Assembly: GCF_988243305.1 (NCBI RefSeq)
Contig: NZ_OZ547142.1
Origin: a plasmid
Direction: 5' to 3' (one strand)
DNA length: 1,549 nt
The number at the start of each line of letters is the position of its first letter. The stretch's first letter is position 1. Shown here one piece after another: positions 905 to 933 of the stretch. A model generated the notes under the pieces. That model saw nothing but the letters and a program-made list of their open reading frames with translations, made no database searches and was not told where the DNA came from. A program made the position numbers and the translations under genes.

Positions 905-933
905 AAGGGCGTTGCGTGCAACGCAACGCCCTT
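905..933. other. Perfect hairpin / 29-bp near-palindrome (13-bp stem, 3-nt loop) at the module junction
   Basis: AAGGGCGTTGCGT (905-917) pairs base-for-base with ACGCAACGCCCTT (921-933), loop GCA 918-920. No U-tract follows on either strand (GCCTAGAATAG on +; TGGGGGTG on -), so it is not a canonical intrinsic terminator. Confidence 0.6.

Follow-up and report, generated by a model that had tools for sequence, protein, structure and literature searches.

What is a perfect 13-bp stem-loop doing between the transfer origin and the replication origin of a plasmid of 1549 bp? The stretch of DNA analyzed here (the window, 1549 bp) is a complete circular plasmid of the pKL1 / Col(MG828) type, and the stem-loop at its positions 905-933 is unannotated: the entry beneath the match is 'none' in every record. 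The passages that mention pKL1 at second hand in PMC3832669 name an IHF box and a 16-bp inverted repeat only, and do not describe the hairpin. The plasmid has been known since the 1990s, and for biology at large a small stem-loop in it that carries no annotation is of little consequence. Should it serve to prime or to insulate, it would rank among the very few functional parts of a replicon that is close to minimal, and would be useful for the design of minimal vectors.

The plasmid and the position of the stem-loop

The window is matched end to end, at 100% coverage and 99.2-99.7% identity, by many 1549-bp plasmids of E. coli, Klebsiella, and Shigella. The near-identical full-length relatives include pO26-S1, and pKL1 (NC_002145), also of 1549 bp, is of the same family. 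The relatives are typed Col(MG828), the MOB-suite replicon type, and all are classed as 'mobilizable'. Near-identity over the full length and an identical RepA, by which the family is recognized, are both found in the window, which as a whole is a member of the pKL1 / Col(MG828) family. pKL1 and the Col(MG828) mini-plasmids (pO26-S1 and many unnamed ones of 1546-1553 bp) are like the window in RepA, in the order of the elements, and in the position of the hairpin. In the hairpin itself, however, pKL1 differs from the window: its allele is imperfect, with a C.A mispair and the loop TGC, whereas the window has G928 and the inverted loop.

The sole gene, repA, is on the plus strand and crosses the end of the circular record (1132-1549 and 1-59, with the stop codon at 57-59). 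Its product of 158 amino acids is 100% identical to RepA in hundreds of pKL1-type records and has an HTH_36 domain together with a sub-threshold match to RepL. Rightward from the hairpin come an A+T rich origin stretch (936-998, GC 0.35) carrying an IHF-like box on the minus strand (963-975, AAACAACCACTTA, one mismatch to WATCAANNNNTTR), then two 23-nt repeats or 16-bp perfect inverted repeat found by a repeat search (999-1046, TGTCGCATCCTGGATG...), a candidate repA promoter on the plus strand (1061-1089, TGCACA-17-TAGATT, a consensus match only), and repA. Where the pKL1 oriV is mentioned in PMC3832669, an IHF box and this same 16-bp inverted repeat are noted in it, and it is said to hold Rep binding sites. 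It is to the repeats at 999-1046 that RepA would be expected to bind. A difference between the window and close relatives is at position 1034, the central base of the 12-bp palindrome at 1022-1046, which is A or T depending on the relative.

To the left of the hairpin lies a ColE1/pMB1-type oriT (bom) on the minus strand (833-903), which is conserved in about 1900 ColE1-type plasmids. The matches to these plasmids start at 833 or 842 and end at 901-908, none extending beyond, so that the hairpin begins 1-5 bp past the end of the homology and is outside the conserved oriT block. GC content drops from 0.68 at 870-929 to 0.35 at 930-1019. The first-pass annotation had placed the hairpin at the boundary of ColE1-like homology and at a boundary between modules, and both placements hold. 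The backbone shared with sibling mini-plasmids that have other RepL-like replication modules (58-902) and the oriT homology run out together at a junction at 902-908 (...GACACCCC AAA GG), where A904-A906, read on the minus strand, are the TTT next to the stem. In siblings of 1.4-1.9 kb (L013, L014, L015, and L022), 58-902 is present at about 84-91% identity, and different small RepL-like genes follow, their replication modules joining the backbone right after ...GACACCCC(AAA); same-backbone plasmids thus carry different replication modules from about 902-908 on. In ColE1-type plasmids, the end of oriT is followed by unrelated sequence and then by rop. The RepA replication module opens with the hairpin, which has the distal end of the ColE1-type oriT on one side and the A+T rich origin on the other. 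That it is part of this module, rather than a scar left between two modules, follows from a diverged RepA module, described below, in which a compensated version of it is retained.

The nick of the ColE1-type oriT we take to lie in ...GTATACTGG|CTTA on the minus strand (845/846), the strand being presumed from general oriT organization. With T840, which is private to the window, a small hairpin that spans this expected nick site, GGCTTGCA-TAGG-TGTAAGCC (828-835 / 840-847), gains a closing A-T pair. The idea that the right arm of the stem-loop is a remnant of the pMB1 motif GCCAACACCC, and the left arm its inverted duplication, was considered and is without support: MAFFT did not align the motif to the arm, and there was no intermediate arrangement among 91 loci. 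The pMB1 sequence used for this comparison is matched in several plasmids at 100% identity over 189 nt.

The stem-loop consists of a left arm at 905-917 (AAGGGCGTTGCGT), a loop GCA at 918-920, and a right arm at 921-933 (ACGCAACGCCCTT). The arms are 100% complementary over 13 pairs, as first described. The 29-mer is predicted to fold with -22.2 kcal/mol as RNA (z = -5.4 to -5.6 relative to shuffles) and -16.6 kcal/mol as DNA. A perfect stem of at least 13 bp with a loop of 3-8 nt occurred in 1 of 1000 dinucleotide shuffles of the window, and the analytic expectation is 1.4e-4. The hairpin is not a known Rfam RNA family: a search of Rfam 15 with E up to 10 returned a sole match, to tpke11, which is due to chance (15.7 bits against a gathering score of 43, E = 4).

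Alleles of the stem-loop and their origin

A sensitive search with the 43-mer at 898-940 found variants of the hairpin in 332 PLSDB records. The 60 matches listed are small plasmids of 1.4-5.2 kb, and among them the hairpin or its variants occur in no other plasmid context; the records that were fetched are typed Col(MG828) and have the hairpin always at one position. In this search, the stem-loop is found in all ~330 pKL1-type plasmids and nowhere else. No pKL1-type plasmid lacking it was seen, the ~330 records with the hairpin comparing with ~329 that have RepA at 99% identity or more. Recurrence of the 29-mer at module boundaries, which had been proposed as a check, was not observed, since it is confined to pKL1-type plasmids and to a single fixed position in them.

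The alleles were compared in the fetched plasmids, 40 metagenome contigs, and 25 genome contigs. Most often the hairpin is a quasipalindrome, AAGGGCGTTGCGT-TGC-(A/G)CGCAACACCCTT, with a C.A and often also a T.G mispair. The commonest allele, AAGGGCGTTGCGT-TGC-GCGCAACACCCTT, has both mispairs, and the pKL1 allele, ...TGC-ACGCAACACCCTT, has C.A alone. About 99% of the PLSDB records have one or both of the mispairs, as do 48 of 54 allele observations, 44 of which are of the two commonest stem forms. A perfect stem with the loop TGC, as in L002 and L005, is rare (about 1% of the family). L004 has a T-A pair and an inverted loop (AAGGGTGTTGCGT-GCA-ACGCAACACCCTT), and further variants are found in L048, L011, and L071. 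The allele of the window, a perfect C-G stem with the loop GCA, is in no other record: it is absent from the 332 PLSDB records, from 295 E. coli RefSeq genomes, and from the 40 metagenome contigs. A single PLSDB record scoring 99% or more is a 20-nt partial match at the start of the record. In the 295 E. coli genomes, which have full-length matches, the best identity is 98.4%, equivalent to the loop difference alone. Between the window and its nearest relative, L005, there are five differences, and the loop (918-920) accounts for three of them. An error in the source assembly or in sequencing (deletion of one T and insertion of one A, 3 nt apart) may be behind the loop difference. Perfection is a property of the window copy and not of the family element, because most relatives have one or two mispairs and the opposite loop orientation.

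The window allele is probably a private, derived product of template switching during replication. The nascent plus strand, having copied the left arm, would switch to the complementary arm and copy the loop and the left arm backwards, which would yield the left arm, GCA, and a perfect complement of the left arm. The product so predicted from the common allele is exactly the window sequence, and the sequence of L004 is exactly that expected if the pKL1 allele underwent the mirror event on the other strand. The common allele is probably ancestral, as judged by allele frequency and the nearest relatives. Homogenization of arms and inversion of the spacer by intermolecular template switching have been described for arms longer than 9 bp (PMC8604942). 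The hairpin resembles the quasipalindrome hotspots of the Ripley model in E. coli and yeast (PMC7202029, PMC8604942) in having an imperfect common form, rare alleles that are templated, and arms longer than 9 bp. An imperfect inverted repeat is indeed the common state here, and the derived alleles of the window and L004 are templated by the other arm, including the inversion of the spacer. The published events, however, were seen in reporters, whereas those at the hairpin are read from natural plasmid alleles. Corrections to C-G (L002/L005, L009/L030, and the window) and to T-A (L004, L048, L011, and L071) are on differing flanking backgrounds and may have arisen independently. This pattern of alleles is indirect evidence that the arms interact during replication. 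The window hairpin is a clean natural case of arm homogenization and loop inversion in a quasipalindrome, and it is a lesson that a hairpin seen as 'perfect' in a single sequence can owe this to a private allele.

The fold can be followed further in L010, a 1565-bp plasmid with the same backbone. Its RepA is 81% identical in alignment (78% by tblastn for records of the L010 lineage), and the DNA of its replication module is about 73-80% identical to the window. At the same spot is a hairpin, AAAGTGTTCCGC-TTT-GCGCAACACTTT, with 11 of 12 pairs formed, which differs from that of the window by compensatory changes and a symmetric 1-bp deletion. The hairpins of L071 and L011 are intermediate between the two. 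Among 11 distinct alleles, 4 of the 13 pairs have changed on both sides (G-C to A-U twice, C-G to U-A, and U-A to C-G via U.G); 95% of the cells are paired, a value equaled in 1 of 500 shuffles, and sliding the partner abolishes pairing. The inner core, GTTGCG...CGCAAC, is the best-conserved part. The two-sided changes, the pairing retained in L010, and the lack of any hairpin-less pKL1-type plasmid argue for conservation of the fold rather than of the duplex sequence. Changes that look compensatory can, however, be produced without selection by template switching itself, and a caveat on constraint is that the commonest alleles are imperfect.

Possible roles of the stem-loop

We tentatively read the hairpin as a weak terminator or insulator that acts on the minus strand, between the replication module and oriT, although the odds for this reading are less than even. 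The hairpin would act as a folded single strand, most probably the minus strand, and not as a recognition sequence in duplex DNA. Its action would be that of a weak factor-independent terminator or insulator, stopping leftward transcription that leaves the rep/origin module before it reaches oriT and the RNA I/RNA II-like region of the backbone. Termination would be expected to be partial, since the fixed oriT sequence close by leaves a T run of no more than 3-6 nt after the stem.

The minus-strand RNA of the common alleles is predicted to be more stable by 2.3-3.5 kcal/mol, a G.U pair replacing C.A. As a pointer to the strand this is a weak hint, because the two polymorphic mispairs are wobble-compatible on opposite strands. 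After the stem, the plus strand reads GCCTAGAATAG (GCCUAGAA immediately 3') and has no U-tract; the minus strand reads TTTGGGGG (UUUGGGGG immediately 3'), with TTT only, then GGGGG. The first-pass annotation had rejected a terminator for lack of a U-tract. This was right for the plus strand, which has none and on which no terminator was called. For the minus strand the dismissal was premature, as the stem is followed there by three T in the window, four in about a quarter of the relatives, and six in L010.

The GC-rich stem of 11-13 bp, the short loop, the minus-strand T run of 3-6, and the position at a module border are all features of rho-independent terminators, and the stem of the window (13 bp, loop of 3, -22.2 kcal/mol) is as stable as such terminators demand. 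However, the U-tract of the window is too short, neither strand having about 5 or more U in the 8 nt directly 3' of the stem. Nor did a scan for terminators in the window call the hairpin on either strand, and the same was true when terminator and promoter scans covered both the window and L010. An upstream promoter is also missing: to the right of the hairpin the promoter scan gave nothing convincing on the minus strand, where the sole candidate (966->938) would start transcription inside the hairpin. The hairpin thus resembles a degenerate intrinsic terminator and appears to behave like a quasipalindrome hotspot.

ColE1/pMB1-type plasmids offer a parallel. At the equivalent position rop is transcribed toward oriT and is followed by another stem-loop (GCTTGTCTG...CAGACAAGC), which lies outside the same oriT and is also without a T run. 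However, the rop-bom stem-loop is unrelated in sequence, has a 17-nt loop, and is about 30 bp further from oriT; it also follows a gene (rop), whereas the hairpin of the window precedes a replication origin.

It is nearly as likely as the terminator or insulator, though still only a possibility, that the hairpin is a neutral, self-homogenizing quasipalindrome. By this account it would have no function: frequent template switching between the arms would re-homogenize the stem at the oriT/Rep junction, and there would be little pressure to shed 29 bp from a 1.5-kb high-copy plasmid. Consistent with neutrality, the commonest alleles are the imperfect ones and 'corrected' perfect alleles amount to about 1%. 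Several corrections, apparently independent, have gone both ways (C.A to C-G or to T-A) and the loop has flipped twice, as at a mutational hotspot (PMC8604942, PMC7202029), and three other types of Rep module on the same backbone do without a hairpin (L013, L014, and L015/L022 have none beside oriT). What neutrality does not readily account for is that a hairpin-less pKL1-type plasmid is not found among some 330, and that the L010 module, at only about 73-80% DNA identity, yet retains 11 of 12 pairs and a deletion that is symmetric. Against it also is the recurrence of hairpins directly after oriT in four unrelated types of module. An example is the unrelated module of L033, which starts with a hairpin and has a run of eight T (T8) on the minus strand, a hint in favor of the terminator reading. 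In the modules of L018, L020, and L021, the hairpin has no adjacent T run on either strand, which counts against that reading, as does the lack of any hairpin beside oriT in L013, L014, and L015/L022.

A less likely reading, which we regard as doubtful, is that of a signal in single-stranded DNA, namely a site for priming or primosome assembly (ssi/pas-like) on the minus strand, the one expected to be transferred from the ColE1-type oriT. The hairpin, together with the small adjacent one distal to oriT, would lie 60-90 nt from the 3' end of the transferred strand, and the site would serve either to make the complementary strand in the recipient or to start the lagging strand at the RepA origin. 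Lagging-strand origins matter for mobilizable plasmids, as the pMV158 sso literature attests. That structure rather than sequence is conserved would suit such a signal, as would the better folding of the common alleles on the minus strand, which holds with DNA parameters too, and the direct abutment on oriT. The plasmids L017, L018, and L079 also have, in the same interval, hairpins with covarying stems and a conserved loop. The backbone at 553-615, however, may already hold such a region, as by eye it resembles the primosome-assembly (pas) region of ColE1 in pBR322. A hairpin of 29 nt is also below the size of the ssi signals known to us, and the strand that is nicked is itself only presumed.

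A more specific proposal, which we consider improbable, is that a strand-specific signal in single-stranded DNA couples conjugative transfer to replication, as a minimal site at which the transferred strand is primed or processed, set by design between a ColE1-type oriT and RepL-like origins. The unrelated sibling hairpins (L010, the L018 group, and the L033 type) would then be versions of a 'connector' by which Rep modules plug into the oriT backbone.

In the more distant RepA plasmids (62-74% identity; L018 at 921-1060, L020, L021, L017, and L079), a different hairpin lies 200-350 bp upstream of rep; it has a conserved loop (GCTCACTnCGnGA) and covarying stems. The hairpin with the GCTCACTnCGnGA loop is followed by a long second one (GGGCATTTTGA...TCAAAATGCCC), a candidate structured element (perhaps ssi-like).

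The palindrome might instead be read in duplex form, possibly extruded as a cruciform, by a dimeric protein (RepA or a host factor) within an IHF-bent origin complex, which we judge to be quite unlikely. The center of the palindrome (919) and the RepA repeats (999-1046) are roughly symmetric, about 50 bp on each side of the IHF-like box at 963-975; the inner core is the best-conserved part, and in L010 RepA diverges together with the hairpin. However, there is no similarity to the presumed RepA-binding inverted repeat TGTCGCATCCWGGATG (PMC3832669), the compensatory substitutions in the outer stem and the symmetric deletion alter the duplex sequence and its spacing but not the fold, and the sequence and orientation of the loop vary freely. 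As an operator or iteron for RepA the hairpin was rejected: it is unlike the repeat TGTCGCATCCWGGATG, and the repeat finder puts it in no shared family with 999-1046. The hairpin of L010 is equally unrelated to the L010 iterons.

Very unlikely, in our estimate, is a barrier on the plus strand that would stop read-through from the backbone, or repA transcripts circling the plasmid, before the origin and the repA promoter. No terminator-like site was found on the plus strand anywhere in the plasmid, and on the path of plus-strand transcription the hairpin is the strongest stem-loop before the origin. The U-tract, however, is absent from the plus strand in every lineage, and the plus-strand RNA of the common alleles has a C.A mismatch in mid-stem.

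The recombination junction, one of the readings that the first-pass annotation preferred to a terminator, be it a site-specific site (Xer or resolvase) or a reusable module-joining motif, can be all but dismissed: it is favored by the position at a module boundary, but among the PLSDB matches listed the motif is at no other junction and in no other plasmid family, sibling modules join the same backbone point without a hairpin, and the hairpin is unlike dif, cer, and psi (best matches within 886-955 of 12/28, 14/30, and 15/28, respectively, no better than elsewhere in the plasmid). Xer sites are likewise short elements on small plasmids, but their 11-bp XerC and XerD arms around a 6-8-bp center are absent from the hairpin.

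The two-oriT backbone and wider occurrences of the module

A second oriT of the IncI/R64 type is indicated by sequence matches at 650-748, on the plus strand and in the opposite orientation to the first; the function of such sites in small plasmids is the subject of PMC4743918. A 29-nt inverted repeat (651-679 / 874-902) is common to both oriTs and comprises their distal element GGGGTGTCGGGG.GAAGCCCTGACC. Because the two oriTs are in opposite orientation, either strand could be mobilized, according to which helper is present. In an IncI-gamma/K1 conjugative plasmid, the match to 650-742 is 15 bp from mobA/nikA and the relaxase, and in L012 the oriT match adjoins nikA.

The non-coding backbone (58-902) looks like a degenerate ColE1-type replicon. 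On its minus strand, 172-300 is predicted to form three stem-loops like those of RNA I (-65 kcal/mol, z = -3.8), although the Rfam RNA I model gave no match to the backbone. The only canonical terminator of the plasmid is on the minus strand at 208-180, and a candidate RNA II-like promoter is at 93-121 on the plus strand. Comparison with the siblings points to one shared two-oriT chassis into which alternative Rep modules fit, the joints being at 58 and at about 902-908. L013 and L014 encode a protein of 143-146 amino acids that escapes tblastn with RepA and whose HTH_36 and RepL matches are sub-threshold. The comparison sketches how plasmids of 1.2-1.8 kb are built, from a two-oriT backbone and interchangeable RepL-like modules outside the ColE1-type oriT, and the shared chassis bears on the spread of plasmids that have no relaxase and rely on oriT only.

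Two metagenome contigs of 10-11 kb (L030, 3960-5406, and L035, 5714-7164) contain a pKL1-like segment that runs, in window coordinates, from 833-838 through the Rep module to about 738. These segments are bounded by the nick regions of both oriTs and flanked by ColE1-like sequence; they are either oriT-mediated cointegrates or assembly chimeras formed via the shared oriT repeats. RepA at 100% identity, on many contigs of pKL1 size (L067-L078, L081, and L085; NC_004833), also turns up in assemblies not labeled E. coli (Flagellimonas, Streptococcus, Corynebacterium, Micromonospora, Bradyrhizobium, Clostridium, Pseudomonas, and others). These are almost certainly contamination with an E. coli plasmid and do not reflect a true host range. 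A RepA profile search of viral contigs gave one locus, which was uninformative. Partial homologs of RepA are found in large plasmids, both of 70-105 kb (H207-H210) and of 171-320 kb in Proteus and Vibrio (H217-H219), covering residues 44-157 at about 74% identity or 97-157 at 80%. Their annotation goes no further than an HTH domain, and they may be remnants of integrated mini-replicons.
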